Virus record (IMG/VR): IMGVR_UViG_3300048592_001371
Span: 32,001-96,000 of that record
Length of the DNA stretch: 64,000 nucleotides
Reading direction: 5' to 3' (one strand)
DNA from: a virus
Of this stretch, positions 2,753-37,752 are shown one piece after another. The notes below the pieces were generated by a model. The model searched no databases. It was not told the origin of the DNA and saw nothing but the letters and a program-made list of their open reading frames with translations. How positions within the stretch are numbered: position 1 is the first letter of the stretch; every line of letters starts with the position of its first letter. Made by a program: the position numbers and the translations under genes.

Positions 2753-3229
2753 ATGCAGAAAAGATACTGGAGAACATTGGGTGGGCTGGACGCGTATCTT
2801 GGCCAGTCGTTCAAGAACGACGATGGTACGAGTTACCCCGCGAATTGGTTGTCGCTGTCTAGCCCAGAAGAGAAACTGGCTATAGGTCTGCAGGAAATAG
2901 TTGAGGAAGTTGTGGAAGAGCCTCCGACACCCGCAACAGCCTTGGAGCTGATCGAAAACGCCAAGAATGCCAAGTTGGCAGGAGTCGTTTCGTGGAATGG
3001 TTATTTCTTTCCTGCGAATCCGATGTTCCAAGCACAGATAACAGGACTTGTACTCTCCTTCCGGGAAGGTATCCTGCCTGCGGATAGTCAGGTTGAAGTG
3101 CGAACAGCGGATAACGTGACCTTGATGCTGACCAAGGCCCAACTCCTAGAACTGTCTGGCGTTCTGTTGCAATACGTTCGGCAGGCTTACAAAGACGCTT
3201 GGGATGCGATCGACGCTTTAGCAGTCTAA
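2753..3229 (+). CDS. Tail fibre assembly/accessory protein (DUF4376-like C-terminus)
   Basis: GGAGG RBS before ATG 2753; lies directly after the fibre gene; motifs YPANWL and RTADNVTLMLT. Confidence 0.6.
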   Translation: MQKRYWRTLGGLDAYLGQSFKNDDGTSYPANWLSLSSPEEKLAIGLQEIVEEVVEEPPTPATALELIENAKNAKLAGVVSWNGYFFPANPMFQAQITGLVLSFREGILPADSQVEVRTADNVTLMLTKAQLLELSGVLLQYVRQAYKDAWDAIDALAV

Positions 3230-13107: not shown

Positions 13108-13758
13108 ATGGGAATTCGTGCCATCATCAACAAGAAAACCGGGCGTCTGGTTTCGACCATAGCCGGGGACAGAACGTATGAAGCTTCTGCGGTTCTGGAA
13201 AGCAACCCGGATTTGCGCGTTCGCTACTTGAACGTCAAGCTCCCGACAGGTTACCGCCACGTCGACGCCTCGCGTTACAAGATCAATGCTCGAGGCGTGG
13301 TGTTCAAGTCGGCAGTGACTGCTGACGAAATCGTCGGCCTCCGTGTGGATGCGGCCAAGATTCGCGCTACAGCTCTGATCCGCACATTGGTCGAACTGAA
13401 ACGTCGGCCTCTGACCAAGAACTACACGCTGCAGGGTCAAACCTACCGCGAGAAAGCGTTGCAAGCCAAGGCCCTGAAAGACGCGCTTGTTGCCAATCCG
13501 GGAATGTCAGACACACAAGTCGAGGCCGTGGCACCTATGGTTCTCGACTACGCACGTCTGAAGGGCATTTCCAATTCGGCGGCCGCTGACGACATCTGTC
13601 TGAAGTGGGACGCGGTTCTGGCTACCGCGCGTACGACGGAGAACCAGCGCCAGACCTTCAACGAGCGCATCAAAACGGCGACTACAGAAGAAGAAGCTCT
13701 GGCTATCGAGCAAGAACTGCGCGACCTGATCACTGCCGCAACGCAGCCGGCCGCGTAA
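13108..13758 (+). CDS. Tail-fibre-assembly-like protein (paralogue 1)
   Basis: Motif Q..TY.EK...A...PM...A..KG.S...A..I...TE..R...I..A.T is shared with 20976, 25557, 27166 and 37227; strong RBS. Confidence 0.65.
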   Translation: MGIRAIINKKTGRLVSTIAGDRTYEASAVLESNPDLRVRYLNVKLPTGYRHVDASRYKINARGVVFKSAVTADEIVGLRVDAAKIRATALIRTLVELKRRPLTKNYTLQGQTYREKALQAKALKDALVANPGMSDTQVEAVAPMVLDYARLKGISNSAAADDICLKWDAVLATARTTENQRQTFNERIKTATTEEEALAIEQELRDLITAATQPAA

Positions 13759-13772
13759 TTCGTAGTACAACA

Positions 13773-13803
13773 AACGGGGTGGCTTTCCACCCCGTTACCT
13801 TTA
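13773..13803 (+). terminator. Intrinsic terminator-like hairpin
   Basis: Perfect 10-bp stem AACGGGGTGG-cttt-CCACCCCGTT followed by a short T-rich tract. Confidence 0.65.
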
Positions 13804-13814
13804 TTGGTACAGAA

Positions 13815-14543
13815 ATGTTGAGACTGTCCGAAATCTACAAACCTGTGTTCTCGGCAGATGATGTGAGACTGGTATCGGAAACATTCTGCCACTCACTCGC
13901 TCCCGGATACGCAGACATTATCGGCCGACTATCCAAAGGCCTGCAAGTCCGCTCTGCCTCTGATGCAGACCTTGACATGCTCAAGTATCTACGCGGACTT
14001 AACGTCCTCTCGTATGAGGACACTGCTCTCTCCAGCGAGAACCCACTCATGTACTGGCGCCTATTGGGTTACAGTACAGAGTACGTCCAGAAGCAAATCA
14101 AACACAATACAATTCGGGTACTAGGAGGGGACAACCCAGACATCGATGCCTTCTCAGAACAACTGGCCGCTCTGGGATGGACAATATGCGATGACAGTCG
14201 AGTACGGGTGATTCTGCTGAACAGCCAGGCTCAGATAGATGAAGCACTGTCGTTCTACGGTCTGCGTATGGCGACTATCCCAATAGTGCTAGATCGATTT
14301 CGCGCCTCAATTGGGCCGTTGTACTACCCCGGTTTGCTCGAATGGCCGAATCTGAGCAAACAAGCGGAAGCCTCTCCGGTCTACTTGAAAGAAGGGGCCG
14401 GACTGATTCCAGCGTACAAGTCGATTCAGCTAAGACTGGTTGCCTTGTACGTTGCAAGAATTCTGATGTGCCTTGAGGACATTGCGAGCTGTTTCCTAGA
14501 GCTCGATCTGACGACCATGCGAGTGAAGGAGCGACATGTCTGA
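13815..14543 (+). CDS. TOMM-type leader-peptide-binding / degenerate E1(ThiF)-like protein
   Basis: Motifs VRLVSE, YWRLLG...QKQI...IRVLG, SIGPLYYPG and C-terminal FLELDLTTMRVKERH parallel TOMM cyclodehydratase C-proteins. The usual Zn CxxC after GP...PG is missing. Confidence 0.55.
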   Translation: MLRLSEIYKPVFSADDVRLVSETFCHSLAPGYADIIGRLSKGLQVRSASDADLDMLKYLRGLNVLSYEDTALSSENPLMYWRLLGYSTEYVQKQIKHNTIRVLGGDNPDIDAFSEQLAALGWTICDDSRVRVILLNSQAQIDEALSFYGLRMATIPIVLDRFRASIGPLYYPGLLEWPNLSKQAEASPVYLKEGAGLIPAYKSIQLRLVALYVARILMCLEDIASCFLELDLTTMRVKERHV

Positions 14544-15450
14544 GATCACGAATTTCGACTTGTTCGTAGGGTACAATCAAAGGCCATGGACATTCTCTAC
14601 GAATCCTTCCGACAAGTTCATGGTCTGGTCGAAGCGCCTGAAGCGCAAAATCTTCCCCTTCCGAGACGAGCTAGCACAAGCGGCGCAAGAATTATCAGTA
14701 CGCGGACTAGGTCCCTTCTACGTTCTGTATTCTGGTGGCTACGACAGCGAAGCAATCCTAGCAGCCTTTCTGGAGAACGGTCTGCCTGTTGTCCCGATCA
14801 TGGTGCGATATACCGATGAGAGCAACTCGGAAGACTTTGAACACGGGCTAAACTACTTAGCCCACTACGAGATGTCTCCGATCATCTACGAGATAGATCT
14901 GGCGAAGTGGATACACTCACAGGAGTGTCGTGACCTAGCAGAGAAGGTGCAAGCCGGTGATCTAGCAACGACAGCCATCTACAAGGCTGTGCTAGATATG
15001 CCGCAACTGCGCGAAGGCTTCTTTATCATGGGTTTGCACGAACCAGCCATCTACGCCCAGGACACCGAAGAGAAGCGTGAATGGGTACTGCTGGAAGAGG
15101 AGAAGTGGTACGCACATCACAAATTCCTACTGGCCCACAATCTACGTGGGATAGGTGCCTTCATACACTACAGCCCGGAGCTTTACACGTCCTTCGTGGT
15201 CAATCCAGCGTACATGCGTGTGTATGCGAACATGTTCAATCCTGAGCTGTGGCAAGCCGAGTGGGTGAAGCATCAGTTGTTCTCAAAGTATCTGCGCTTG
15301 GAGCGTAGAGAAAAACGGACAGGGTTCGAAGCGATTCAAGGTGAGGTCAATCGTATCAACCACGAATGGATACGAGAGCACGAAGGATTGTGGGATAGGC
15401 ACTACGTGACGCCTGTCCTAGATTGGGTACGTGGAGTAGGCCACCTATGA
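14536..15450 (+). CDS. PP-loop ATP pyrophosphatase (adenine nucleotide alpha-hydrolase superfamily)
   Basis: VLYSGGYDSE PP-loop and C-terminal KRTGFE. Confidence 0.75.
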   Translation: MSEITNFDLFVGYNQRPWTFSTNPSDKFMVWSKRLKRKIFPFRDELAQAAQELSVRGLGPFYVLYSGGYDSEAILAAFLENGLPVVPIMVRYTDESNSEDFEHGLNYLAHYEMSPIIYEIDLAKWIHSQECRDLAEKVQAGDLATTAIYKAVLDMPQLREGFFIMGLHEPAIYAQDTEEKREWVLLEEEKWYAHHKFLLAHNLRGIGAFIHYSPELYTSFVVNPAYMRVYANMFNPELWQAEWVKHQLFSKYLRLERREKRTGFEAIQGEVNRINHEWIREHEGLWDRHYVTPVLDWVRGVGHL

Positions 15451-16769: not shown

Positions 16770-17189
16770 ATGACTTCTGTTCGTGTATCGCAAGAGAAAC
16801 TGAAAACAGGCTCGCTGGACGTGGCGGAACTGGTTCTGGAAACCCAGCTCGATCTAGCGCGTAGAAACATTACCGCTGCGTACTTCCCAATACGAGAGGA
16901 ACTGGACGAGACATTAGTTCTGCGCGCCATGAACGGAGAACTGGCGGCTGTTCTCGTTTGGCGAAAGTATGTCGACTCTATCTGGATCATCATAGCAGCC
17001 GTGAAGGATGGCTTCCGAGGGCAAGGACTGCATCAACTGCTGCATCAAGAACTGGACAAGGTAGCGCGCCAACTTGGCATCGGCGTCATTGAGACGTATG
17101 TCGGGACAGAGAACAAATCAGTGCTGCGGTCCTACGAAAAGATGGGTATTACGCCACAGATGTACTACATCAAGAAAAAGGTGCCGTAA
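16770..17189 (+). CDS. GNAT acetyltransferase 1
   Basis: AVKDGFRGQGLH acetyl-CoA motif and ENKSVLRSYEKMG. Confidence 0.85.
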   Translation: MTSVRVSQEKLKTGSLDVAELVLETQLDLARRNITAAYFPIREELDETLVLRAMNGELAAVLVWRKYVDSIWIIIAAVKDGFRGQGLHQLLHQELDKVARQLGIGVIETYVGTENKSVLRSYEKMGITPQMYYIKKKVP

Positions 17190-18655
17190 TGCTGTTGGAG
17201 AACGTCGATCTGTTGCTCATTTCGGATTGCTACGAAACTCCGTATGTAAGGTATAGCGGCCCCTACGTCCTCGCTTCCTACCTTCGCAGGCATGGTCTGA
17301 GAGTGCAGGTAGTAGACTACTTTTCCCGCTTCACAGATACCGAGATAGAAACCATAGTAGACGTGTGCGTTGGCTCCAATACCAAGGCGGTAGGAGTATC
17401 GGATACATTCTCCGGCAAGCCCTTGCATGAGCTCGCAGATGGATCGACCTATGGTTGGCCCTTCTTCGAGAGGCATGACAGGATACGTCGCTTCATCGGC
17501 AATGTCAAGCGCAAGAATCCGAAAACGCGACTGTTGATGGGTGGGCAAAAGACCACTCAAGGACTAAGCGCCGGGTACATAGACACATACTTCCATGGGT
17601 TCGCCGAACAGTCACTTCTCGCTTATCTACAAAGCGAAGGACATGAAGTTCCACGTGTCGTCAAAGAAGCCACCATCCCGAATTGGAAAGACATCCCAAC
17701 CATTCATCACGAGTCCGACAACATCCTCGAAGGAGAAACGCTGCCGTTAGAAGTGTCTCGTGGCTGTATCTTCAACTGCAAATTCTGCTCATACCCCCGT
17801 CGAAATGCCAAGGACTTGAACTACATAAAGTCGGAGGAAGCTATCTACCAGCAGCTTCTGCACAACTATGAGCAATATGGCACTACCTGTTACACGCTAC
17901 TGGACGATACGCACAACGATTCGAAAGCCAAACTCGAAACCATTCGGAACGTTCTAGATCGTCTGCCGTTCAGCATCGAATTTGCTACCTATCTGCGGCT
18001 CGATCTGATAGCCAAAGATATGTCCACCGCGGAGTTGCTCATACGAAATGGACTACGTGGAGCCTTCTTCGGAATAGAGACACTACACAAGGAAGCGGGA
18101 CGACTCGTTGGAAAAGGCCTAGAGCCTGACGAAACGAGAAAGGCGCTGCGAAAATTACGGGAGTTGTGGGGAAACGAAGTAGGAACGCAAGGTGCTTTCA
18201 TCCTAGGCTTGCCGAAACAGCCAGAAGCTGATGTGATACTGATGTGCGAAGAGGTCTGCGACCCTTCCTTCCCGTTACATGGCCCAATATTCTTTCCGTT
18301 GATCATGTATCCAGGCAGGACAAATCCCTCACCGTTCGAGAAAAATCCGTCCCTATACGGGATACGCTTGGAGGAAGGGGATCGGCACGGGTATTGGCAT
18401 AATAGTGAAACCGGCATGGACTTCGAACGCGCGATAGAGATTCAAAACGAATACACGACGCGCATCTACCGCAATCACAGACGCCAATGTGGAGGTTTCT
18501 TGCCCATCATGGCAGTTAATCTAGGTATCAAAGCGCGGGACTTAATCGGCATGCCCGCGAGGGTCGCTCATAAGAAGTACAATATGCAGTCGAGGGAGTC
18601 TCCCTATTTGGCAAAGTACAAAGCAAAGGTTCTGGGAACAACGGAGGGGCAATGA
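17189..18655 (+). CDS. B12-binding (class B-like) radical SAM enzyme 1
   Basis: N-terminal GPYVLASYLR..G..V.VVD, SRGCIFNCKFC cluster motif, FFGIETL and FILGLP. Confidence 0.9.
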   Translation: MLLENVDLLLISDCYETPYVRYSGPYVLASYLRRHGLRVQVVDYFSRFTDTEIETIVDVCVGSNTKAVGVSDTFSGKPLHELADGSTYGWPFFERHDRIRRFIGNVKRKNPKTRLLMGGQKTTQGLSAGYIDTYFHGFAEQSLLAYLQSEGHEVPRVVKEATIPNWKDIPTIHHESDNILEGETLPLEVSRGCIFNCKFCSYPRRNAKDLNYIKSEEAIYQQLLHNYEQYGTTCYTLLDDTHNDSKAKLETIRNVLDRLPFSIEFATYLRLDLIAKDMSTAELLIRNGLRGAFFGIETLHKEAGRLVGKGLEPDETRKALRKLRELWGNEVGTQGAFILGLPKQPEADVILMCEEVCDPSFPLHGPIFFPLIMYPGRTNPSPFEKNPSLYGIRLEEGDRHGYWHNSETGMDFERAIEIQNEYTTRIYRNHRRQCGGFLPIMAVNLGIKARDLIGMPARVAHKKYNMQSRESPYLAKYKAKVLGTTEGQ

Positions 18656-19074: not shown

Positions 19075-20540
19075 TGCTGTTAGAGAACGTCGACTTGCTA
19101 ATCGTTAGCGATTTCGCCAATCCCATCTACAAGTCACGCTACAGCGGTCCATACGTTCTCGCCTCCTACCTTCGCAGATTGGGTCTGCGCGTTCAGATAG
19201 TTGATTACATCTCCGAATTCTCGGACGAACAACTGCGGGATATCGTAGACGTTTGTGTCGGGAAGAATACCAAGGCCGTTGGCATTTCTGACACCTTCAG
19301 TTACTTCCAGACACACATGAACGCCAATCGAGTGAATGAGTTCACGATAGCGGGTTGGCCTTTCCTACGAGAGGAGCGGATCAAGGCCTTTGTCGCTAGA
19401 ATCAAGGGTATCAACCCCGATACGCAGATCATCATGGGTGGTGCTAAGTCGACGCGCTTCGATCAACCCGTTCCCTACGTAGACGTTCTATTCAGAGGAT
19501 TTTCCGAAGCGTCCCTAGCAAAGTATCTGATGTCCCGTCACCTGGGTTTGAACAGTTCGTCCTTCGTCGAGGAGCTTCCGATAGATGATTGGATAGACAC
19601 GGTCACTCATATGAGTCCGGAAGACAACCCCTTGGTCAACGAAACCGTTCCTTTGGAAATCTCCCGCGGATGCATATTCAACTGTAAATACTGTTCATAC
19701 CCACGTAAGGGAGCGAAGGACTTCGATTACATCAAGACGGAGGAATCGCTCTACCAAACGCTCTTTACGAACTACTCGGAGTTCGGCATTCGTCGCTACA
19801 TGCTGACGGATGATACGCACAACGATTCGATGTTCAAGCTTGAGCGCTTGCATCGCGTCACTCAACGGCTTCCCTTCAAGATCGAGTATAGCTCGTACAT
19901 CCGAGTCGACTTGCTTCACCGCTATCCTGAGATGATAGACCTGTTGAAAGAGATAGGTCTGAAAGGAGCGATGATGGGGATAGAAACCTTGAATTGGGAA
20001 ACGGGCAAGATAATCGGCAAAGGATTGCAGCCTAAGAAAACGATTGAAACGCTCCAGCTCTTACGTGAGAAGTGGGGCGACACGATCGGTACCCAAGGTA
20101 TGTTCATTCTTGGTTTGCCGCGCCAATCATACAAGGATGCTATCGCGATGTGTGAACGCATAAGCGCAGAAGACTTCCCATTGCATGAGGCACTATTCTT
20201 CCCTCTGTATTTCTTGACCCAGGCTCGCGTCAAGTCGGCTTTCGATATGGACTACGAAAGTTTCGGGTACAAGGTAGAGGGAAAAACGTGGGTCAACGAT
20301 CAAGGGATGACGTCCGAACAGGCAACAAAGCTGGCTAGGTATTACACGAACAAGAACAGAAAGAGCGGGCGTGAGAAGTTCGGTGGCAATCTGCCATTAC
20401 AGCTAGCCAATAGCGGATATGTCGTCGACGACTTGATAGGGAAACCGTTGGGCTCGTTTTTCGAGTCTGAGGAAGCAAAGGGACGCACTACTGAATATGT
20501 GCGTCGATACAAACGAAAACTTTTTGACGTAGAGGAATGA
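19074..20540 (+). CDS. B12-binding radical SAM enzyme 2
   Basis: SRGCIFNCKYC; paralogue of 17189. Confidence 0.9.
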   Translation: MLLENVDLLIVSDFANPIYKSRYSGPYVLASYLRRLGLRVQIVDYISEFSDEQLRDIVDVCVGKNTKAVGISDTFSYFQTHMNANRVNEFTIAGWPFLREERIKAFVARIKGINPDTQIIMGGAKSTRFDQPVPYVDVLFRGFSEASLAKYLMSRHLGLNSSSFVEELPIDDWIDTVTHMSPEDNPLVNETVPLEISRGCIFNCKYCSYPRKGAKDFDYIKTEESLYQTLFTNYSEFGIRRYMLTDDTHNDSMFKLERLHRVTQRLPFKIEYSSYIRVDLLHRYPEMIDLLKEIGLKGAMMGIETLNWETGKIIGKGLQPKKTIETLQLLREKWGDTIGTQGMFILGLPRQSYKDAIAMCERISAEDFPLHEALFFPLYFLTQARVKSAFDMDYESFGYKVEGKTWVNDQGMTSEQATKLARYYTNKNRKSGREKFGGNLPLQLANSGYVVDDLIGKPLGSFFESEEAKGRTTEYVRRYKRKLFDVEE

Positions 20541-20541
20541 C

Positions 20542-20976
20542 ATGGAACTAAAAATCCATAGTATTTCCATCATGCGCGTGTCAAACGATGTGCTGTCATT
20601 CATCCTTCGTACAATGGCCGATTTGGTAGAGGACGGACACTCGGGAAGAGGAATCGCTGTTACCAATGCGGACCACGTAGTCGTAGCAAGGCGTTCTGAC
20701 AATGGCGAACTCGTAGGAGTGCTTGTCTACGTAATAAATAGGCCGAAGGATTTGCTGTGGGTAAATCACGCCGCCGTCAAAGAGCAATATCGCGGACAGG
20801 GGATACATCGAAAGATGCATGCGATGCTCAAAGACATCGCCCGAAAGGAGAATGTCTACGAAGTTGGTTCCTACGTCTCTATTGAAAACAGGGCGAGTGT
20901 AGGGGCGCACAGCAAACGACCCGGCGTCAAGTTCCCAATGATGCGAGTATCCGTGCCCGTTACAGAGGACAAGTAA
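20542..20976 (+). CDS. GNAT acetyltransferase 3
   Basis: AVKEQYRGQGIH and ENRAS. Confidence 0.85.
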   Translation: MELKIHSISIMRVSNDVLSFILRTMADLVEDGHSGRGIAVTNADHVVVARRSDNGELVGVLVYVINRPKDLLWVNHAAVKEQYRGQGIHRKMHAMLKDIARKENVYEVGSYVSIENRASVGAHSKRPGVKFPMMRVSVPVTEDK

Positions 20977-21602
20977 TGAAACAATTCCGACGATTTTGGT
21001 TCTGCGTTGATCTACGCGACAATACTGTGCTGTATCTGGAGCACGACTTCGGTCACAATCAGCCTCCTGGAATAGACCCGGAGGCAAACGTCTTCCCTCT
21101 TGCGGGTATGTTCCCGACCGATTTTACACCGGCGACGTGTGCGAAATTCGAGTACGTCGATGGGGCACAAGTAGCATTGAAGAAGGAGAAGCTAACCCAG
21201 CGCCAAAGTCTGTTGCGCCAAAAATACGTAGCTTTGGCAAAGATCATGAAAGTGGTCTACTGGGGCAGAACGAAGGTCAACAAAGGTTGGCTGCAGCAGG
21301 ACGCCGTCTACAAAATGAAGTTGGACGCGGCTGTTGCCTATCTCAACAAAGAAGAGAATCCTCCGGGCCTAGCAATGCTGCAACATGAAGCCGATTTGCG
21401 GAAAACGACCGTCTATGCGATGGCGAAAGCAATAACCATCGCGGCGCAGGATAACGAGCGCATCCTGATCGACACGGAGAACTTTCGTCAGGAGTGGACT
21501 CAAAAAATCCGAGCTTGCTCAAGTCTGCTAGAGCTGCAGCAAGTGATGGATACTCTCCGCAGCGAAAGCTACATTCCGGTCACTATGGGGTTCCTGCAAT
21601 GA
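20976..21602 (+). CDS. Tail-fibre-assembly-like protein (paralogue 2)
   Basis: QDAVYKMKLDAA...MLQHEADLR...AKAI...TENFRQ motif. Confidence 0.65.
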   Translation: MKQFRRFWFCVDLRDNTVLYLEHDFGHNQPPGIDPEANVFPLAGMFPTDFTPATCAKFEYVDGAQVALKKEKLTQRQSLLRQKYVALAKIMKVVYWGRTKVNKGWLQQDAVYKMKLDAAVAYLNKEENPPGLAMLQHEADLRKTTVYAMAKAITIAAQDNERILIDTENFRQEWTQKIRACSSLLELQQVMDTLRSESYIPVTMGFLQ

Positions 21603-22621
21603 AATTCCTCGTCTTCCAACCAATGCCGAATACGGCGCACAAAGGACTGGCCCAGACACAGGTGGTGATAGGGAACTGCAATTCTCCGATCTCTCGTCTG
21701 AACCGATTCAAGACAGGGGACGTGCTCGATTACAAGTGCGTCTACCCAATCTTGGATTTGCGGACGGATATCAAAATGGCGGATCCGTTCGCCGAGTTCG
21801 ACGCGGCAATGTTGGCCGCGGCCGGTCGTATTCGAGACTTCTCCGAGAAGAACAATGTTCCTGTTCACGTGATGTGGAGCGGCGGTCTAGACAGCACCTG
21901 TGCCTTGGTAGCCCTTGTTCGGGCTGGCGTCCGACCGGTTGTGTTCTTGCATGGATATTCGATCCACGAGAACCCAACAATGTTCTACCAATTCGTCAAG
22001 GACTACGAAGTAGCACACGTCCGAGACACGGACAGGCTGTTCTCCGGGGCCGTTGTTATGGGTGAAGCCGGGGATCAACTCTTTGGTTCGGACATGATGA
22101 TCAAAATGCACAGGCGAGACCTGTTCGCTCCGAATTGGAAGGACTCGATCATCAACAATCTGAAAGAACGCGGACGCAGTCTTCTGGATACATTCTTGCC
22201 TATAGTGGATGAATGTCCACGACAGATCGAGTGTGCGGCCGATTTCTTTTGGTGGTGGAACTTCTCGCAGAAGTCTCAAGCGGTAGCTCTGCGCTACTTG
22301 ATAAACGCGAAGGATCCGGCGGACGCGGCCACGCGCTGGAGCCCTATCTTCATGGACAAGCAAATCCAGGAATGGTCGTTGAACGCACCGAGAGAGGCAA
22401 AGATCGATCCAAGCGTTGGCGTACCTAGCTACAAGCTGGCCATTCGTCGGTTCATTTCCAAGTACGCCAGCCCAGATTATGTACTGCCTTCGAAGATAGG
22501 TAGTTTGTATCGGACAATGATCATCTCGCAGCACAAACACCCCGCACTCGATGAGAACTATAACAAGGTGTCTGCGCTCGATGTCGACAAGCAACTACAC
22601 GTGAATTGGAGCTTCGCCTAA
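21599..22621 (+). CDS. Asparagine-synthetase-like PP-loop ligase lacking the glutaminase domain
   Basis: VMWSGGLDST and GEAGDQLFG motifs; ATGA-coupled start at 21599. Confidence 0.8.
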   Translation: MKFLVFQPMPNTAHKGLAQTQVVIGNCNSPISRLNRFKTGDVLDYKCVYPILDLRTDIKMADPFAEFDAAMLAAAGRIRDFSEKNNVPVHVMWSGGLDSTCALVALVRAGVRPVVFLHGYSIHENPTMFYQFVKDYEVAHVRDTDRLFSGAVVMGEAGDQLFGSDMMIKMHRRDLFAPNWKDSIINNLKERGRSLLDTFLPIVDECPRQIECAADFFWWWNFSQKSQAVALRYLINAKDPADAATRWSPIFMDKQIQEWSLNAPREAKIDPSVGVPSYKLAIRRFISKYASPDYVLPSKIGSLYRTMIISQHKHPALDENYNKVSALDVDKQLHVNWSFA

Positions 22622-24078
22622 TGCTGTTGGAGAACGTTGATCTACTGATCCTTAATGAGTTCTCTGATCCGTACTTCAAAGTGAGGTACTCGGGACCTTA
22701 CGTGCTTGCTTCGTACCTGCGTAATCGAGGATACCGTGTTCAAATACTCGACTATGTTTCGCATTTCACGGATGCTCAGTTGGTAAAGGCGCTACGAGTA
22801 TGCGTCGGCCCGAAAACGTTGGCTGTTGGCCTAGCCGGAACCTTCACGGTTTCCTTGAAGGCGACGTATTCGGCCAAGGATACGCCGGAGGCACGTACTG
22901 GATGGCCACTATGTCAGCCACGGCGCATCGACTTGTTCCTCGACACTGTACGGTCTATCAACCCAGAGACAAAGATCATCATGGGTGGGCATAGACACGG
23001 GTATGACTACCCGAGAGACGTGGACACCCTGTTCTTGGGGTTTTCCGAGGTATCTCTGTTCAATTACCTCGAGACTCTAAGAATAAACAACAGCTGGGTT
23101 CCCAAAGTCGTCCAGGAAGAAAAGCAAGAGGGTTGGAACAGAGACGTTTTTCTGTACTCGGAGGAGGACAACATCCTTCCCGGCGAGACGCTGCCTCTTG
23201 AGATTTCTCGCGGTTGTATTTTCAACTGCAAGTATTGCACGTATCCAAGACGCGGGGCGAAGGATTTCACCTACGTCAAAGACGAGGATGTGATACGTAC
23301 TCAACTGTCACACAACTATGACAAGTTCGGGGTTCTGAATTACACGCTGACGGATGACACACACAACGACACTGAAGAAAAACTGAAACGTCTCATTCGT
23401 GTTCAGAAGGAGTTGGGCATTCAAATACGCTATTCGGCGTATGCTCGTCTGGACCTCATTCATACCTTCCCACACACCGCGGACCTTCTATTCCAGGCCG
23501 GTATGCGTGGTCCCATGTTTGGCATCGAGACGCTGAATTGGGAAGCCGGGAAGATGATTGGCAAGGGCTTGCACCCAGACAAAGTCCGTGCGACATTGCA
23601 CCGACTACGCGCAGAATGGGGAGACGAAGTAGGCACGGAGGGGATGTTCATTCTCGGCTTGCCTAAGCAAAGTCGGTTAGACATGGTACGAATGGCCAAG
23701 GAACTGATGGATCCTTCGTTCCCTTTGCATTACGTGATTTTCTACGCCCTGATCATACAACCGTTGAAGGAAGACTCGGCCTTCAATCGAGAACCCGAGA
23801 AGTTTGGGTACGATACTTCAGTCAAAGCGGCGGGGAACTGGGTACGTGATGATGGTTTTACTGCTGACGAAGCGCGGCAGATGCAAATACTCTATACCAA
23901 TCAGATGATCGAGACGCAGCGAAACAAGTTTGGTGGTGTTCTACCGTTCTTGGTATCGAACGGTGGACGCTCTCTGCAAAGCATGATTGGAAAGCCATTG
24001 GAGTTGTCGCAGCGTGATTACATTGACGCGACACGCTACATGGAACGTTATCTAGCCAAGGTGTTTTCGGAGGACTAA
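22621..24078 (+). CDS. B12-binding radical SAM enzyme 3
   Basis: MLLENVDLL start as in paralogues 1 and 2; SRGCIFNCKYC. Confidence 0.9.
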   Translation: MLLENVDLLILNEFSDPYFKVRYSGPYVLASYLRNRGYRVQILDYVSHFTDAQLVKALRVCVGPKTLAVGLAGTFTVSLKATYSAKDTPEARTGWPLCQPRRIDLFLDTVRSINPETKIIMGGHRHGYDYPRDVDTLFLGFSEVSLFNYLETLRINNSWVPKVVQEEKQEGWNRDVFLYSEEDNILPGETLPLEISRGCIFNCKYCTYPRRGAKDFTYVKDEDVIRTQLSHNYDKFGVLNYTLTDDTHNDTEEKLKRLIRVQKELGIQIRYSAYARLDLIHTFPHTADLLFQAGMRGPMFGIETLNWEAGKMIGKGLHPDKVRATLHRLRAEWGDEVGTEGMFILGLPKQSRLDMVRMAKELMDPSFPLHYVIFYALIIQPLKEDSAFNREPEKFGYDTSVKAAGNWVRDDGFTADEARQMQILYTNQMIETQRNKFGGVLPFLVSNGGRSLQSMIGKPLELSQRDYIDATRYMERYLAKVFSED

Positions 24079-24942
24079 ATGTATTGGAACAGGTTGTTTG
24101 ACGACGTGGTTGACTTCACCCAGCATCGGTATTACTCACAGTTCGAGAATCTGAAATCCACGAACCCGCAGAATTTTCGCTGCGACCCACTAGCCCCGAG
24201 TCCTGTTCTTTTCTTGGGTTCCTGTGACATGGGTGGTCCTGTCAATAACGCAGACGAAGTGTGGCCGCGACGCGTGTATAGAAAACTATGTGAGTCGCAG
24301 GGGCGGTTCCCGTACATGGCTTTGTCCAAGATCAGCTCTGGACTAGAAGCCACGTTGCGTCGACTGTACATCTACTGCGAACTCGTAGGTCCGCCGAAAG
24401 TGCTCTATATGGTCATGCCTCGGCCAGTAAGCATTGAAATTCCTGTGAAGCGGTCGATGACAGATCCTCTCGTTGGAGTAACGGACATAGAGCGATACTT
24501 GACGTTCCTCGGCAAACTCCCAACAATCACAACCGAAGAGGTGTTCCTCTTCAAGAAGATTTCTGAGGTACTGATCGGTTTGTCTGAGAATGAGTCGTAC
24601 CAACTGTACCAGTTTGAAAAAGGGACCGCCTTCTTGCAGACGCTCTGTCGTTTGCACAATATCGAGTTACGCTGGACGCCCAATCTTAGTGCCACTGCCA
24701 TAGAGTACTACGCCAAATACTTTTCTCTGTTCCTGAGGGAGAATGATTTCATGCGGCAGACGTGTCTGGGTGTTGGCAAGGCTCTGGATTTCTCAGGCGA
24801 CGGATCTGTGGGCGACGAGACACAGGGCGTTATCGCTAATCTGATGCTGGATGGCAAACCCGGTGAATTTTCTCTAGACGCAACAAAGAAGCAGCTGGTC
24901 GAGAACTTGGAATTCAAACGCACAACCCTGGAGGAAAAATGA
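24079..24942 (+). CDS. Hypothetical protein, possibly a degenerate SGNH-hydrolase-like fold
   Basis: VLFLGSCDMGG...VWP...ALSKISSG...P.VLY.VMP resembles SGNH blocks I-III. Confidence 0.45.
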   Translation: MYWNRLFDDVVDFTQHRYYSQFENLKSTNPQNFRCDPLAPSPVLFLGSCDMGGPVNNADEVWPRRVYRKLCESQGRFPYMALSKISSGLEATLRRLYIYCELVGPPKVLYMVMPRPVSIEIPVKRSMTDPLVGVTDIERYLTFLGKLPTITTEEVFLFKKISEVLIGLSENESYQLYQFEKGTAFLQTLCRLHNIELRWTPNLSATAIEYYAKYFSLFLRENDFMRQTCLGVGKALDFSGDGSVGDETQGVIANLMLDGKPGEFSLDATKKQLVENLEFKRTTLEEK

Positions 24943-25547
24943 TACCACTACACGTAGCAAATCTCAATACACGGGACTATGTCCATGGCACGTCTATCAT
25001 GACAGGGCTGACGCGCTTCCTACTAGAAAATCACGATACCGTAACGGAATTCACCTTCCGTCTGTACAAGAAGCTCCTGACTTTGCCGCTACTGAGCATT
25101 ACCGAGAAACAGGTCGACAATCCAAAGGACTACGTCGCTACGGGTTCCTTCATGGGAAACGGCTCGCAATGGTTCTTCCAAATTCAGCCTTCAGTCCTTC
25201 CCGTGGAGCACGTTCTGCACATTGACGAGTCCGCTCTAGTAAATAGGATAGAACTGAGAGGAGACAGGTACGTCATAGACGTTGAAGAAAAAGACGACGT
25301 CTTTGTCACCTGGAATGCCATATCAAAGACGCACAACCTGAGAGTGTTCAGCGAGCTCGGCGTGACAAAGCCGGGTGGCCAGACATGGCTAACAGGACAA
25401 ACATTCAAAGACTTGTCCTTCTTGAGAACTCGGCCTGCGACATTGGGAAATTCGGTCGCGTTTCAGAGACTGTCCGAGCGCTGTATCAAACATGACATGT
25501 ACTACGACGAGGCAATAGTCGGAGACAAGACTATAGTCTATGCCTAA
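24939..25547 (+). CDS. Hypothetical protein (RDYVHGT motif)
   Basis: GGAGG RBS and ATGA overlap; function unknown. Confidence 0.6.
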   Translation: MIPLHVANLNTRDYVHGTSIMTGLTRFLLENHDTVTEFTFRLYKKLLTLPLLSITEKQVDNPKDYVATGSFMGNGSQWFFQIQPSVLPVEHVLHIDESALVNRIELRGDRYVIDVEEKDDVFVTWNAISKTHNLRVFSELGVTKPGGQTWLTGQTFKDLSFLRTRPATLGNSVAFQRLSERCIKHDMYYDEAIVGDKTIVYA

Positions 25548-25556
25548 GGGGACATA

Positions 25557-26165
25557 ATGCTGCAACTTGCTATCGATGTGACGGATGGTACGGTCATATA
25601 TGCCTTACCGGATGCGTACCGAATCTGCATGCCCAAATTGCGGACATGGATAGAAAACATCATACTCGATGTTCGGCTTCCCAAGGATTTCCCGATACGC
25701 GCATTAGGTTCACAGAATTTTGTCCGTATAGGGCTGGAAATTCAACGACGGGTGGATAGCGTCCCGGAAGCAGCTATGCTTCTGAATCTGAAATACCACT
25801 CCGTGGACAAAGTGAACATGCTGGTTAATGGACATCGCTTTGCAACGATGAACAAGTTGCTGTTGCAACCACGAGTGTACGAGCTAAAAATAGCGGAGGC
25901 TGAAGCCGTATTGAAGTCGGGCTCCAGTTTGGAGCCCGTAGAAAACGCGCCTATGCTGATAGAGGAAGCAAAAGCGCGGGGCCTATCTGTACGAGATGTT
26001 GCCAAGACTGTTCTACTGGCCAGAGACGATCAGGACGACATGCTGAAAAGGACGGAAGGTATGCGAATATCCGCCACTATTCGCATCTCCGAGGCAAAAA
26101 CACCGCAAGAGGTTTTCGAGATAATGTCGGGCTTCGAGGAAAGTTTCCACAACCGAGGCCTATGA
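25557..26165 (+). CDS. Tail-fibre-assembly-like protein (paralogue 3)
   Basis: QPRVYELKIAEA...PMLIEEAKARGLSV...AKTV...TEGMR. Confidence 0.65.
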   Translation: MLQLAIDVTDGTVIYALPDAYRICMPKLRTWIENIILDVRLPKDFPIRALGSQNFVRIGLEIQRRVDSVPEAAMLLNLKYHSVDKVNMLVNGHRFATMNKLLLQPRVYELKIAEAEAVLKSGSSLEPVENAPMLIEEAKARGLSVRDVAKTVLLARDDQDDMLKRTEGMRISATIRISEAKTPQEVFEIMSGFEESFHNRGL

Positions 26166-27169
26166 TGAGACCGTTGATCTACATAGGTACTCCTAGATAT
26201 CGAAACAGGGTTTTGCGTACTCTGTACCAAGTTCTGCATATCGACGTACCGATGTCTCGTTGTGCTTATCAGGAGTGCAACGTCGTCCCAGTCAGTCATG
26301 CTTTCCCTTTGATGTCCGAACATCGAATAGCGCCGTGTGCCCAGCCGCTTTATGAATTAGAACGCTTGGTCCTAGACAGGGCGACACAGCTTGTGTCGGA
26401 ATCGTCTCAGACGGGAAGGCCCATTTGCGTTAAATACTCCGGTGGTCTGGATAGTATGTTGGCACTCCTGGCCTTCGAACGAATTTCCGCAGAATACAAA
26501 GTCTTCCTGACGCCCAACTCCATCAAAGAAAATCCCACCGTCTTCAAAAAGTTCATTGCCCATCGTGAGTATTTTCACGCGAACGACCCTTCTGTCTTTG
26601 ACGGGCTCGTGATAACAGGAGACGGAGGGGATGCTCTATTTCTAGACGCTATCGTTAAAGGGCCGCAGATGAGGCATGGCGATGCGGTATTGGACTGGGA
26701 CTGGAAAGACGGTTTCGTGAAGGGTATGTGGGGCACGCCAGAAGAGAACAAGTTTGTCTTGGGACTACTAGAGCCGGCGATGCACGATTGTCCCTGGCCA
26801 GTGAAGACGGTTCGGGACTTCTTCGCTTGGACTGGCCTAGCGATCTTCTACCAACCGGAAGTATTGCGTTGGCTTCCTACACTACAGGATCCAAAGAAGA
26901 ACTGGCCTTGGGTCCGGCCGTTCTTTGCAACGAAGGAATTCGTGGAGTGGTCTCTTGGGCAAGAGCCGAAAATCAAGTATCCAAGTACGTCTGACTACAA
27001 ACCAACATTCCGAAAACTGTGTGAGAAATTTTCGGGACTGGATCTATCGGACATGAGGAAAGACTTCTCGCTAGGTAAGACGAGGGGTGCTGCTCCTATG
27101 GTGGTAGGCGTGATGGAAGACTTGACACACGTCACCACCGAAGGAATCGAAAAACTGGTAAAGGAATGA
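26162..27169 (+). CDS. Asparagine-synthetase-like PP-loop ligase
   Basis: VKYSGGLDS and GDGGDALF motifs. Confidence 0.8.
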   Translation: MMRPLIYIGTPRYRNRVLRTLYQVLHIDVPMSRCAYQECNVVPVSHAFPLMSEHRIAPCAQPLYELERLVLDRATQLVSESSQTGRPICVKYSGGLDSMLALLAFERISAEYKVFLTPNSIKENPTVFKKFIAHREYFHANDPSVFDGLVITGDGGDALFLDAIVKGPQMRHGDAVLDWDWKDGFVKGMWGTPEENKFVLGLLEPAMHDCPWPVKTVRDFFAWTGLAIFYQPEVLRWLPTLQDPKKNWPWVRPFFATKEFVEWSLGQEPKIKYPSTSDYKPTFRKLCEKFSGLDLSDMRKDFSLGKTRGAAPMVVGVMEDLTHVTTEGIEKLVKE

Positions 27170-27801
27170 ATATGGGCGCTCCGAATCTCTATCAACTCGC
27201 GGTTGATACACACGACAATACCATCATCTATGCGATGCCGGAAAGTTATCGGTTGTCCCTGCCAGATTTGAGAACCTGGGTGGAGAACAAACTGTTCTAC
27301 GGAAGCTTGCCTGAAGGCTTTCCAATACGCAATCTGGATAGTCAAAAGTTTGTGCTATCTGAGGGAAAGGTCCTAGCACGGAAGGACGAGGTTCGGGAAG
27401 GTGTCGCTTTGCTGAACGTGAAGTATTGGGCGATCGATCAGGTTCTAATGATCATCAACGGACAACGCTTCGCGGTAACAAACAAGCTGTTGATGCAGGA
27501 TAGGATATACGAGGCAAAGGTCGAGGAAGCGCGTCTGATTCTGGCAAGACAAGACGAGGAGCTCAGGAAGTCACACTTTGAGACATCTTGTCCTATGCTG
27601 TATGCTGAGTCCGAGGACAAAGGACTGAGTCTAAACGTCGTAGCAAAAACAGTGATGGTAGCATACGAAGAACAAATGTCTCGCTTGAAGAAAACGGAGA
27701 TCATGCGAATGGCGATAACGAACAAAATCGCCAATGCCGAGACAGAGGAACAAGTTCGGGCTCTGTTGAAGGACGTCAAACTCTATTTCTACACGAGATG
27801 A
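27166..27801 (+). CDS. Tail-fibre-assembly-like protein (paralogue 4)
   Basis: Close paralogue of 25557 (NG.RFA..NKLL.Q.R.YE.K..EA). Confidence 0.65.
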   Translation: MNMGAPNLYQLAVDTHDNTIIYAMPESYRLSLPDLRTWVENKLFYGSLPEGFPIRNLDSQKFVLSEGKVLARKDEVREGVALLNVKYWAIDQVLMIINGQRFAVTNKLLMQDRIYEAKVEEARLILARQDEELRKSHFETSCPMLYAESEDKGLSLNVVAKTVMVAYEEQMSRLKKTEIMRMAITNKIANAETEEQVRALLKDVKLYFYTR

Positions 27802-28805
27802 AACTCCTCAGCTACCACAACAATCCGATGTTCAAGAACAGGACGTTGAATACATTCTTCAACGTGCTCAACGTCGAGGCACCTATGTCTAGGTGTTCTT
27901 ACCAAGGATGCAATGTCCTACCTGTTCATCACTTGTTGCCTCCAATGTCGGAGTATGCAATACGTGTCGTTTCGCAGCCGGGTGCCGAGCTGGAGACGAT
28001 AGTCGAAGCAAGGGTGCGCGAGCTGGTCAACGAAGCACGCCAATTTGATCTGCCAATTCACCTCAAGTACTCTGGTGGTTTGGACAGCCTGCTCGTGCTG
28101 CTCATGTTACATAGGTGTGACGCGGATTTCGTTGTCTATCTGACTCCCGATTCCATCAAAGAGAACCAAGACGTATTCAAGAGATATGTCTCGAACCGAG
28201 ATTTCAAACACGTCAATTGTCCTAGTCTGTTCGACGGACTGATAATTTCAGGAGACGGGGCCGATGCTCTGTTCATAGACATGCTGGCAACAAGCGTAGT
28301 TTCCAAACACGGAGAGACGTCCTTGGATTGGAAATGGGAAGAAGGCTTTGTGAAAGGCATGTACGGAACGGAACAAGAGAACAACGAAGTGCTCGAATTG
28401 CTCTTTCCCGCTCTCGACGAATGTCCTTGGGAGGTAGAGACAGTTCGGGACTTCTTCGCTTGGACTGGCCTAGCGATCTTCTACCAGCACGAGACGTATC
28501 GTTGGCTTCCGACCATGCCTAATCCGGCAGAGAATTTCGCGCGCTTCCGACCGTTCTTTCCAACGAAGGATTTCGTCGAATGGTCTTTGGGACAGGAAAC
28601 GAAGGCCAAGTTTCCGAGCTTCACCGATTACAAACCGGCATTTAGGAAGCTGTGCGAAAAGCTAACGGGTCTTGACTTTTCCTACATGCGGAAAGACTTT
28701 TCGCTGTGGAAGACCGTAGCAGGTAATCGTCTGCATCCCGGTGTCAAAGATGATCTCTCGATTGCAACTATCGAAGAAATAGAACAGGCCGCTATCTATC
28801 CATGA
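27798..28805 (+). CDS. Asparagine-synthetase-like PP-loop ligase
   Basis: LKYSGGLDS and GDGADALF; tandem paralogue of 26162 with the same 335-aa length. Confidence 0.8.
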   Translation: MKLLSYHNNPMFKNRTLNTFFNVLNVEAPMSRCSYQGCNVLPVHHLLPPMSEYAIRVVSQPGAELETIVEARVRELVNEARQFDLPIHLKYSGGLDSLLVLLMLHRCDADFVVYLTPDSIKENQDVFKRYVSNRDFKHVNCPSLFDGLIISGDGADALFIDMLATSVVSKHGETSLDWKWEEGFVKGMYGTEQENNEVLELLFPALDECPWEVETVRDFFAWTGLAIFYQHETYRWLPTMPNPAENFARFRPFFPTKDFVEWSLGQETKAKFPSFTDYKPAFRKLCEKLTGLDFSYMRKDFSLWKTVAGNRLHPGVKDDLSIATIEEIEQAAIYP

Positions 28806-37226: not shown

Positions 37227-37751
37227 ATGATCAAGATCGACTATGAGTATAAGGGTGAGAGGATGGAGAAGCTCCTGCAAGAGGCCGGGGTTTCTCTTAC
37301 ACCCATAGACGGGGAATGGTTTGCCGCCGATGAGAAAGCGGCTACGGCTCAGCAAATCTGCACGTCCTATCCTCTCGACGCCTACAAGGCCGAAGTGATA
37401 GACGCTATTTTGGCGCACGGTGCCGCGATACGTGGACAATTCATTACGCGTTCTCCACAAGAGATGGCTTCCTGGTCTGTGAAGTATCAAATGGCATTAG
37501 AAGTACAAGCCGGTAGGCCGGAAAATGCCGCGGGATTAGCCGCGGAAGCTCAGATAAGAGGGGTGGCCCTGGAAGACATGGTGAACAGGGTACTGAACAA
37601 CGCTGTTCAGTATCTGGGCTTCGAAGCATTCGTTTCTGGCATGGAAGGAAAGTTTAAGGACATGGCTCTGCAATCGGCCACTCCATCTCTAGTAGGTGCG
37701 ATTCCTTGGGAATTCGATTGGACTACCTTGCTACCGAAGACAGGAGGCTGA
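37227..37751 (+). CDS. Tail-fibre-assembly-like protein (paralogue 5, in canonical position)
   Basis: EMASWSVK...A...LAAEAQIRGV...V.RVL.NA motif; sits between two fibre genes. Confidence 0.65.
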   Translation: MIKIDYEYKGERMEKLLQEAGVSLTPIDGEWFAADEKAATAQQICTSYPLDAYKAEVIDAILAHGAAIRGQFITRSPQEMASWSVKYQMALEVQAGRPENAAGLAAEAQIRGVALEDMVNRVLNNAVQYLGFEAFVSGMEGKFKDMALQSATPSLVGAIPWEFDWTTLLPKTGG

Positions 37752-37752
37752 C

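Follow-up and report, generated by a model that had tools for sequence, protein, structure and literature searches.

A candidate two-component amide ligase shared by uncultivated phages and CPR bacteria

Introduction

In lasso-peptide biosynthesis the cyclase, which is AsnB-like and forms amides at the expense of ATP, depends on recognition of its substrate by a small separate RRE (the PqqD-like B1 protein). An RRE (RiPP recognition element) has a winged helix-turn-helix fold of ~90 residues and binds a precursor through its leader or follower peptide. In QatB–QatC and CdnD–Cap9, a QueC-type PP-loop enzyme forms a heterodimer with a partner protein, which serves as its second substrate (PMC13376578). 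Proteins with DUF4376 are proven fiber chaperones in Alteromonas phages (PMC7289586, PMC10579305).

The locus considered here lies in a window of 64,000 nt, the whole stretch of DNA that was analyzed, taken from a viral record of 123.5 kb that is ~50% complete; all coordinates are positions in the window. The source phage is described as large and jumbo-type. An earlier note on this DNA proposed that a fiber-binding chaperone fold had been duplicated and recruited as an RRE-like adaptor, by which each of several AsnB-like ligases would be directed to a particular fiber. The analysis reported here favors, at a probability of about 55%, an ancient, co-inherited two-component amide ligase in which the partner would be a docking or specificity subunit.

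Gene layout of the cassettes

Three canonical partner/ligase pairs lie on the + strand. The first consists of a 208-aa partner (20976..21602; family HMM, blastp and a phrog_21671 match at E 2.7e-7) and a 340-aa AsnB-synthetase-like PP-loop ligase with an SGGLDS motif (21599..22621; ligase HMM A4, E 6e-93). The second joins a 202-aa partner (25557..26165; AF2 model, family HMM and blastp) to a 335-aa AsnB-like ligase (26162..27169; AF2 model at pLDDT 84.8, VIA and Foldseek), and the third joins a 211-aa partner (27166..27801; family HMM and blastp) to another ligase of 335 aa (27798..28805; blastp and HMM A4). ATGA stop/start overlaps are found at 21599, 26162, 27166, 27798 and 28802; they bound the third partner gene at both ends and tie the stop of ligase 3 to the start of a decarboxylase gene. 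The ORF coordinates confirm the claim that 20976, 25557 and 27166 each overlap the start of an AsnB-like ligase gene in this way, and the translational coupling of the two genes counts in favor of a two-component system. One more ATGA overlap, at 20976, is the junction between a GNAT gene and the first partner.

The fourth and most divergent paralog (216 aa; 13108..13758, + strand; blastp, family HMM and hhalign) lacks direct coupling to a canonical ligase, which counts against a two-component system. The next gene opens at an ATG at 13815, after a gap of 56 nt without overlap; it encodes a 242-aa protein (13815..14543, + strand) and in turn overlaps, at 14536, the gene of a second-type PP-loop protein (304 aa, SGGYDS; 14536..15450, + strand). 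The paralog had been said to precede a "TOMM-like" plus PP-loop pair; the gene order holds, but the label is unsupported, as the 242-aa protein has no family match (query 13755-14543, 20 codons too long at the N-terminus) and neither YcaO nor SagB is present in the record. The second-type PP-loop protein matches HMM A4 in its PP-loop region only (E 7.5e-4). It is related to L044_1314_2249 (blastp E 1.7e-19), to c37 of other phage clusters and to another SGGxDS protein in 3 of 11 CPR loci.

The cassettes are surrounded by three class B (B12-type) radical SAM paralogs (17189..18655 on the + strand, 19074-20540 and 22621-24078), each with a GNAT gene beside it (16770-17189, 18652-19074 and 20542-20976), and by a sulfotransferase, an APS kinase and a fold-III decarboxylase. 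Directly 5' of the paralogs stand a 145-aa fiber-tail-bearing protein (13108), a GNAT (20976), an uncharacterized gene (25557) and a ligase (27166). The whole cluster is flanked by fiber-like genes.

The partner family

The four paralogs are homologous, as the earlier note had supposed. Local blastp aligns 25557 with 27166 at E 9e-57, 20976 with 25557 at E 2e-10 and 13108 with 27166 at E 5e-7, and a partner-family HMM built from 60 database relatives and run on every ORF of 50 aa or more in the record (738 in total) recovers all four at E 1e-33 to 2e-46, the next ORF scoring E 0.07. A search of 1.84 billion proteins yields 494 family representatives at E ≤ 1e-3 (50% identity clustering). Both this family and the ligase family are without a Pfam or NCBIfam model, and tblastn finds no relatives of partner or ligase in 50,697 GenBank phage records. 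Three of the four paralogs match phrog_21671, a PHROG family without annotation, over ~140 residues at E 2.7e-7 to 2.8e-4; 13108 has no match to it.

In the AF2 model of 25557 (pLDDT 81), residues 1-64 form an N-terminal beta domain and residues 71-199 a C-terminal helical bundle. The C-terminal helical domain, with its R..Q..VY..K..EA and TE..R motifs, is present in all four paralogs, among which Q104, Y108, K111, A115, M133, A149, T166, E167 and R170 are invariant. Among the best 150 family matches, 149 reach the end of the profile and 86 begin only past profile position 60; as judged from sequence, conservation in the family is concentrated in the C-terminal domain. Comparison of the partner fold with the PDB returns only generic helical bundles (Z ≤ 9.9), so a docking or specificity role is without structural precedent. 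By analogy with the lasso-peptide RRE and cyclase, an adaptor or specificity role may reasonably be proposed, but the RRE-like part of the earlier idea found no RRE-type winged-helix match in Foldseek PDB or VIA-wide searches, whose rows span mainly residues 39-202 and barely cover the N-terminal beta domain.

A 174-aa protein encoded between two fiber-like genes (37227..37751, + strand; iterated HMM and hhalign) had been grouped with the four paralogs through a common motif. With the first family HMM it ranks 8th of 738 (E 2.8), and with an iterated HMM 5th of 738 (E 0.0017). Profile–profile comparison gives a probability of 87.6% (E 3.5e-6) and, in a second comparison, 95.3% (E 2e-8, 126 columns). 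A null run of 290 single-sequence hhalign comparisons puts it 5th (E 1.4e-5), the next ORF lying at 1.2e-3. As read from the second profile–profile alignment, 37227 retains R94, K111, A115 and an aromatic residue at Y108, but lacks Q104 and, in the TE..R part of the motif, E167 and R170. The kinship itself is upheld to the extent that 37227 is a probable remote homolog of the partner C-terminal helical domain. A chaperone role for it would be suggested by position, since a fiber-like gene lies directly 5' of 37227 and of none of the four paralogs. It has only three database relatives and no Pfam, PHROG or NCBIfam function.

The phage also encodes a DUF4376 tail-fiber-chaperone-type gene (2753..3229, + strand; PF14301 at E 4.5e-9, 33.5 bits, over the cut-off), which sits just 3' of the fiber gene 51-2735. 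When the whole record is searched with PF14301 at E ≤ 10, window positions 2933-3223 are the sole match. None of the 60 partner-family members matches DUF4376, nor do the four paralogs or 37227 at E ≤ 0.1, and the DUF4376 protein falls outside the top 12 of 290 hhalign scores against the partner family. By these comparisons, the phage's own DUF4376 chaperone is unrelated to the partner family.

Identity of the ligases

Residues S93, G94, G95, D97 and S98, which form the SGGxDS PP-loop motif, are invariant in 16 aligned members of the ligase family. The top five VIA matches of the ligase 2 model all come from the AsnB family (AsnB, ASNS, TsnB9, beta-lactam synthetase and carbapenam synthetase); their Z values, from highest to lowest, are 14.1, 13.5, 13.0, 11.9 and 10.5 over 191-246 aligned residues, whereas other PP-loop enzymes reach Z ≤ 8.5 (Cap9 6.3, QueC 5.4). 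Foldseek matches the ligase model to 1ct9 at E 2.9e-4. The structural alignments begin at target residues ~135-159, past the glutaminase domain, and the class II (Ntn) glutaminase domain is absent from the ligases, which measure 335-340 aa and have no GATase Pfam match. Against PF00733 (Asn_synthase), 21599 scores 13.2 bits (cut-off 21), and 26162, 27798 and four relatives do not match. By predicted fold, the ligases are glutaminase-less AsnB-type synthetases, in line with their original description as AsnB-like. Viral contigs carry the family on at least 294 stretches.

Co-occurrence and co-divergence of partner and ligase

Scoring of the gene neighborhoods with a family HMM, which the earlier note had advised, places a ligase next to the partner in nearly every locus when partners are searched for first. 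In CPR genomes, the partner abuts an SGGxDS ORF of ~366 aa in 11 of 11 loci, and these ORFs match the window ligase HMM at E 4e-16 to 8e-28. In metagenomes, a ligase adjoins in 24 of 28 loci, and in three of the four exceptions the contig ends within 77 nt; the genome and metagenome locus sets overlap, as at least L128 and L017 have contigs of equal length. The synteny in CPR may partly come from shared ancestry. One viral contig (L008) carries three partners and two ligases.

When ligases are searched for first, a partner adjoins 33 of 86 viral ligase ORFs (80 loci); it is found directly 5' of the ligase 29 times by HMM and four more times by hhalign (probability 90%). Every one of the 32 partners detected by HMM touches a ligase. 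The remaining 53 ligase genes, largely of other clades, have a different gene 5' (a T4-type small terminase in 24 loci), and hence the ligase family does not universally need this partner. When 85 ligases are placed on a tree, presence of a partner takes 4 changes compared with 27.9 for shuffled labels (0 of 500 shuffles as low), and 39 of the 43 partnered ligases fall in a single clade.

Partner and ligase genes diverge in parallel within the window and with the same topology: partners are 43-44% (25557/27166), 24% and 21% identical, and ligases 55-56% (ligases 2 and 3), 26% and 26%. Adjacency holds across CPR classes and unrelated phages at ~20% sequence identity. The conserved adjacency in phages and CPR and the congruent divergence argue that the pair is a genuine functional unit, and the pairing recognized from the window alone is thus sustained. 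Its recurrence in uncultivated phages and CPR points to an old two-part enzyme and not to a tail-fiber helper invented by this phage. The proposed duplication and recruitment of a fiber chaperone fold is not supported: the pair forms an old module that also occurs where no fiber genes are recognized, and any recruitment may have run in either direction.

A homolog of the B12-type radical SAM protein (34% identical, E 4e-85) lies directly 5' of the partner in six other viral loci, in the company of the second PP-loop type, TauD, a desaturase-like protein, a cupin and a twitch radical SAM protein. The CPR loci include a SagD-type YcaO in 7 of 11 cases and SagB in 5 of 11, as well as transporters. 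No recognized fiber genes are found among the cassette neighbors in the other viral and CPR loci, and a scan of the CPR loci for precursor peptides among small Cys/Ser/Thr-rich ORFs returned noise only. The company of radical SAM, YcaO/SagB and dioxygenase genes makes a peptide, a protein or a tailored small molecule a likelier substrate than a specific tail fiber.

Proposed mechanism and alternatives

As a two-component amide ligase, the cassette would encode in its 3' gene a glutaminase-less AsnB-type synthetase that adenylates a carboxylate with ATP and joins it to an amine, by analogy with AsnB, beta-lactam synthetase and TsnB9. The C-terminal helical domain of the partner, with its near-invariant R, Q, Y, K, E and R, would dock on the ligase or complete it, and the variable N-terminal domain may select or present the substrate. 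Against docking, the strict conservation of charged residues would fit just as well with a catalytic site, a ligand site or a residue that is modified. The module would be ancient and common to many uncultivated phages and CPR bacteria, and in this phage it would have been duplicated as a unit to give three canonical pairs and a divergent fourth beside the second PP-loop type.

The partner might instead be a second substrate or carrier that receives the adenylated carboxylate, or has a residue of its own activated, as in QatB–QatC, CdnD–Cap9 and TtuB–TtuA. The strict 1:1 gene coupling, the co-divergence and the invariance of K111 and E167 within a helical domain that does not resemble an enzyme would suit such a role, and PP-loop enzymes whose neighboring partner enters the active site are on record (PMC13376578). 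This explanation is nevertheless unlikely: the partners have no conserved terminus, with Gly2 present among the four paralogs in 13108 only (also in the relatives P0004 and P0005), starts of MK, ML and MN in 20976, 25557 and 27166, respectively, and differing C-termini, and the ligase fold is of AsnB type rather than QueC type.

Recruited tail-fiber chaperones acting like an RRE, each steering its ligase to covalently modify one virion fiber, make a distinctly doubtful explanation. The fiber-like genes that flank the cluster, the remote homology of the fiber-flanked 37227, and the precedent of the Alteromonas chaperones agree with it, as do a cluster auto-named "tail protein family" among the ESM-feature neighbors of 25557 and BFVD fold matches labeled DUF4376 at ranks 12, 21, 24 and 34. 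However, the module is found in CPR bacteria as well as in 33 viral loci where the annotated neighbors are enzymes and not fibers, the PF14301 search misses the partners and 37227, the true DUF4376 chaperone does not score against the partner family, and 37227 lacks the invariant Q, E and R. No modified fiber residue, leader sequence or docking site was identified, and nothing links any ligase to one fiber; the assignment of each ligase to a particular fiber is not supported.

Very improbably, a hitherto undescribed protein- or peptide-amidating two-component system, common to CPR bacteria and phages and here triplicated with the GNAT/B12-type radical SAM pairs and a sulfation pathway, could decorate the phage's own receptor-binding fibers, each N-domain picking one fiber; if true, this would be the first phage-encoded RiPP-like tailoring of virion proteins. 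There is an equally slim chance that the cassette serves DNA or nucleobase hypermodification, in which amines from the neighboring decarboxylase would be amide-linked to a carboxylated base (e.g., 7-carboxy-7-deazaguanine or a modified pyrimidine) and the partner would be a DNA- or nucleotide-handling subunit. Phage thymidine-hypermodification clusters bring together genes for radical SAM enzymes, PLP decarboxylases, GNATs and P-loop kinases with unassigned "amidoligase" genes (PMC8989533), and dCMP deaminase, RNase H and nucleases occur among the neighbors in other viral loci. Yet these nucleic-acid neighbors are ordinary T4-like core genes, the kinase of the cluster is a full-length APS kinase paired with the sulfotransferase, the ~50% complete record holds no thymidylate-synthase-like hydroxymethylase, and the CPR context is one of YcaO/SagB and transporters, not DNA enzymes. 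Least probable of all are independent genes that are merely co-transcribed and adjacent through operon packing or shared descent: many ligase-family members have no partner and overlaps are common among phage genes whatever their function, but the adjacency persists across CPR classes and unrelated phages at ~20% identity, is kept through duplications and follows one ligase clade.

The two linked protein families of the putative amide ligase are currently nameless, and the pair is kept from genome-reduced, ultra-small CPR bacteria to jumbo-type phages. Its travel with radical SAM, YcaO/SagB and oxygenase genes points to unexplored amide-forming chemistry within viral auxiliary metabolism, for which peptide or protein tailoring, nucleobase hypermodification and a small metabolite are candidate roles. 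Once the substrate is defined, hundreds of viral and CPR genes would gain an annotation together, and it would become possible to test whether phages use the cassette route to tailor their own virions or DNA.

Comparison with known systems

The DUF4376 chaperones (gp27 of Alteromonas phage V22 and gp9 of A5) are small phage proteins of a size like that of the partners. Their label is borne by some BFVD structural neighbors of the partner and their position is matched by 37227, but their Pfam domain is missing from the partners, from 37227 and from the 60 family members. QatB–QatC and CdnD–Cap9 likewise consist of a PP-loop enzyme encoded beside a partner of no known family (PMC13376578); in contrast to them, the cassette ligase is of AsnB type, the partner has no conserved Gly2 tail and the context is biosynthetic rather than a defense operon. 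The AsnB family (AsnB, beta-lactam synthetase, carbapenam synthetase and TsnB9) shares SGGxDS and the nearest predicted fold with the cassette ligases. These differ from it in that the phage and CPR enzymes (335-366 aa) lack the N-terminal glutaminase domain, either fall below the Pfam Asn_synthase threshold or do not match it at all, and have a dedicated partner gene 5'. With respect to lasso systems, no B2 protease or precursor peptide was identified with the cassette, the ligase lacks the N-terminal domain of the cyclase, and the partner, unlike the lasso RRE, is a protein of ~200 aa with a beta domain and a helical bundle. The lasso cyclase and its RRE are still the closest functional analogy to the adaptor idea, as they too combine an AsnB-like enzyme with a separate small protein.

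Partner and ligase genes in the phage

The main result of this analysis is that the pairing of a partner protein of ~200 aa with an AsnB-like PP-loop ligase of 335–340 aa is more than local. The window carries three such cassettes, in which the partner genes 20976–21602, 25557–26165 and 27166–27801 (all +) precede the ligase genes 21599–22621, 26162–27169 and 27798–28805 (all +), and a divergent partner paralogue at 13108–13758 (+). The ATGA overlaps of the three partners with the ligase starts, reported in the earlier note, were borne out (20976/21599, 25557/26162 and 27166/27798), and the same overlap joins 26162/27166 and 27798/28802. The proposed homology of the four partners also held: they are true paralogues by local blastp (E 9e-57 to 5e-7), and a family HMM recovers them at E 1e-33 to 2e-46, apart from the other 734 ORFs of the record, the best of which reaches E 0.07.

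The window covers bases 32001–96000 of an IMG/VR virus record that is 123.5 kb long and estimated to be ~50% complete. The UvsX-like recombinase of the record shares ~40% identity with homologues in 200–270-kb Vibrio, Dickeya and Erwinia phages (tblastn, GenBank phages), which marks it as a large myovirus-type phage. An enzyme block, entirely on the + strand, separates two groups of fibre-like genes, the first at 51–2735 (894 aa), 8831–10978 (+, 715 aa) and 11416–12300 and the second at 35878–37200 and 37750–38745. The block encodes a sulfotransferase, three pairs of a GNAT and a class-B radical-SAM protein, PP-loop proteins, a fold-III PLP decarboxylase and a full-length APS kinase. Downstream of partner paralogue 13108, across a short gap, come 13815–14543 (+) and next a gene for a second type of PP-loop protein (14536–15450, +). 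The product of 13815–14543, previously called 'TOMM-like', has no match in Pfam or NCBIfam, and neither YcaO nor SagB was found in the phage record. Two in-cluster genes, 24079–24942 and 24939–25547 (both +), are also matchless in Pfam and NCBIfam; the second encodes 202 aa, the length of a partner, yet does not resemble the partner family and has no match in PHROGs. The gene for a 145-aa protein (12623–13060, +) stops just upstream of 13108; this protein and the 715-aa fibre-like protein 8831–10978 have in common a C-terminal tail of ~33 residues (73% identity, three terminal glycines), perhaps a repeat motif of fibres or a tag carried by both.

Association of partner and ligase in other genomes

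With the partner subfamily alignment as query, 11 loci were retrieved from species-representative genomes, all of them CPR/Patescibacteria MAGs from several lineages. The partner abuts a gene for a ~366-aa SGGxDS protein in 11 of 11, and these proteins match the window-ligase HMM (E 4e-16 to 8e-28). In metagenomes this query yielded 31 loci, which partly duplicate the CPR genome set; the partner was recognised by ORF calling and HMM in 28, the ligase adjoins it in 24 of these 28, and in three of the four exceptions the contig ends at most 77 nt from the partner. Head-to-tail PAAP and PAP arrangements (P, ligase; A, partner) occur in the metagenome loci L114, L115 and L124, so the window's phage is not alone in having duplicated the module. 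The small viral contig L008 (8.9 kb) carries three partners and two ligases. Amid these copies, at L008:4113–4607, lies an Acb1-type anti-CBASS gene (PF23474, E 1.8e-24) that overlaps a ligase start.

The search that began from the ligase found relatives encoded on 294 viral stretches. Neighbourhoods were counted in the best 80 of these 294, which hold 86 ligase ORFs: a partner lies directly upstream by HMM in 29 of the 86, and four further viral ligases have a divergent upstream partner (hhalign probability 90%). Every HMM-detected partner in the viral loci touches a ligase (32/32).

Partner and ligase are also co-inherited. Mapped on an unrooted maximum-likelihood tree of 85 distinct ligases, presence of a partner requires four changes, compared with a mean of 27.9 when the labels are shuffled (0 of 500 shuffles as low), and one clade (SH-aLRT 93) holds 39 of the 43 partnered ligases. 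Within the window, identities give the same topology for partners and ligases, with 25557/26162 and 27166/27798 grouped and 20976/21599 outside, the pattern expected if whole cassettes were duplicated. The CPR ligases form a well-supported group (SH-aLRT 100) within viral diversity that includes the viral locus L084, a placement suggestive of exchange between phages and CPR bacteria; with the tree unrooted and the window's three ligases on long branches, no donor or direction is drawn from it. A sizeable fraction of the ligases without a partner is flanked by T4-type genes for the small and the large terminase (24 loci), and thus the ligase family as a whole does not need the partner. Loci of this unpartnered clade comprise L032, L035, L053, L058 and about 20 other viral loci, the small terminase being a weak PF11053 match (E 7.5e-5).

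A candidate two-component amide ligase

The description of the enzymes as AsnB-like ligases without a glutaminase domain is right by predicted fold. The AF2 model (pLDDT 84.8, pTM 0.87) is nearest to five AsnB-family structures, TsnB9, beta-lactam synthetase, human ASNS, carbapenam synthetase and E. coli AsnB (Z 10.5–14.1); other PP-loop enzymes reach Z ≤8.5, Foldseek agrees with the AsnB-family result, and the structural alignments start past the targets' glutaminase domain. At the sequence level, the family scores under every Pfam and NCBIfam threshold, and its match in a PDB-sequence profile search is limited to the PP-loop motif. The SGGxDS motif is invariant in the three canonical ligases, whose pairwise identity is 26–56% (local blastp).

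In the AF2 model of the partner (pLDDT 81), a small beta domain at the N-terminus precedes a bundle of long C-terminal helices. Four residues of the helical domain (R94, K111, E167, R170) are invariant and four more (Q104, Y108, A115, A149) almost so, which leaves the N-terminal part as the variable part of the protein. Comparison of the model with the PDB (Foldseek) and VIA-wide returned generic helical bundles only, with chaperone, RRE and enzyme folds absent from matches that covered mainly residues 39–202, and its neighbours among the predicted viral structures of BFVD are uncharacterised proteins of phages, a few with the label DUF4376. The Atlas suggests PF27318 (HI1402_helical) as a candidate family. 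An exhaustive profile search placed 494 representatives in the family at E ≤1e-3, and none of 60 sampled carries a relevant Pfam domain. The family has no Pfam or NCBIfam model; the sole family covering it is a PHROG without known function.

Each cassette is best read as encoding a two-component amide ligase, a reading in which our confidence is about 0.55. The AsnB-type subunit would adenylate a carboxylate and then couple it to an amine, the conserved helical domain of the partner would dock on or complete the enzyme, and the variable N-domain would add specificity. Homology, adjacency, co-inheritance and fold are observed; we infer binding, chemistry and this division of labour. Complex prediction for ligase 26162 and partner 25557 (alignments A4 and A6) scored 0.04, 0.38 and 0.10 (mark 0.32) without controls and speaks neither for nor against binding. 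Alternatively, the partner could be a protein substrate or carrier of the ligase, by analogy with QatB–QatC and CdnD–Cap9 (PMC13376578, in excerpt). This alternative is weakened by the lack of a conserved terminus in the partner, and we consider it unlikely.

Relation to fibre chaperones

Slightly less likely still is the model of the earlier note, in which a fibre-chaperone fold was duplicated and recruited as an RRE-like adaptor directing each ligase to one fibre. That model compares the partners with 37227–37751 (+, 174 aa), a protein encoded between two fibre-like genes and said to share the partners' motif. The C-terminal ~120 residues of 37227 align to the partner helical domain (hhalign probability 88–95%), and among the 290 ORFs of a genome-wide hhalign null it takes fifth place, with the ORF in sixth place trailing by two orders of magnitude. 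37227 is probably a remote homologue of that domain; the motif itself is incomplete, as Q104, E167 and R170 are absent from 37227 in the alignment. The protein has three database relatives (word-indexed protein search) and no functional annotation in Pfam, PHROG or NCBIfam, and it is its gene position that suggests a chaperone role.

The phage also encodes a canonical DUF4376 protein (2753–3229, +; PF14301, 33.5 bits, over the cut-off) directly downstream of the fibre gene 51–2735. Experiments in Alteromonas phages have established this type of protein as a fibre chaperone (PMC7289586, PMC10579305, both in excerpt), and 2753–3229 is probably the chaperone of fibre 51–2735, of the V22 gp27 type. 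It has no similarity to the partner family by hhalign, so duplication and recruitment of a fibre chaperone in this phage is unsupported; any relationship between chaperone and partner would be ancient and could have run in either direction. Fibre genes are absent from the annotated neighbours of the module elsewhere.

Neighbouring genes

The gene directly upstream of the partner in six further viral loci encodes a 515-aa protein homologous to the B12-type radical SAM proteins of the window (34% identity, E 4e-85). The same clusters encode a homologue (E 1.7e-19) of the second PP-loop type seen in the window, which also occurs, as a small protein, in 3 of the 11 CPR loci. Recurrent viral neighbours are a TauD-type dioxygenase, a desaturase-like di-iron protein and a twitch-domain radical SAM protein, and a cupin neighbours the module in 12 partner-bearing loci. 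Among the CPR loci, a SagD-type YcaO (217 bits, against a cut-off of 219) lies 2–4 kb from the pair in 7 of 11 and a SagB-family dehydrogenase (over cut-off) at the same distance in 5 of 11; a sodium:solute symporter is found in 6 of 11 and PaaK-like ligases in one locus. YcaO, SagB and similar neighbours are peptide- or metabolite-tailoring enzymes; a search of the CPR loci for precursor peptides yielded noise only. Five of the 11 CPR loci (L010–L020) also encode a PQQ-propeller/PRTase protein.

The enzyme mix resembles that of thymidine hypermodification (PMC8989533, in excerpt), but a role of the cassettes in DNA hypermodification gains no support from the CPR context, and no thymidylate-synthase-like gene was found in the record, itself ~50% complete; such a role is improbable. 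Mere co-transcription of partner and ligase is the least probable of these explanations.

Comparison with known systems

A tblastn search of 50,697 GenBank phage records found no relative of the ligase, partner 20976, 37227, the two-domain relative P0013 or two viral ligases; the UvsX-like gene, used as a positive control, matched 132 records. A word-indexed protein search with 25557 returned the query itself only, and scans of viral contigs found no relatives with alignment A1 or the relatives P0003 and P0008, and with alignment A3 the contig L008 and a false locus, L009 (no HMM match). The names returned by a cluster look-up were uninformative, and a full-text literature search (supplements outside its scope) found no description of the partner–ligase pair. 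The partner family, the glutaminase-less ligase clade and the strict coupling of the two across phages and CPR bacteria all appear to be undescribed. Systems of this kind, in which a PP-loop or AsnB-like enzyme has a small partner dedicated to it, are already known.
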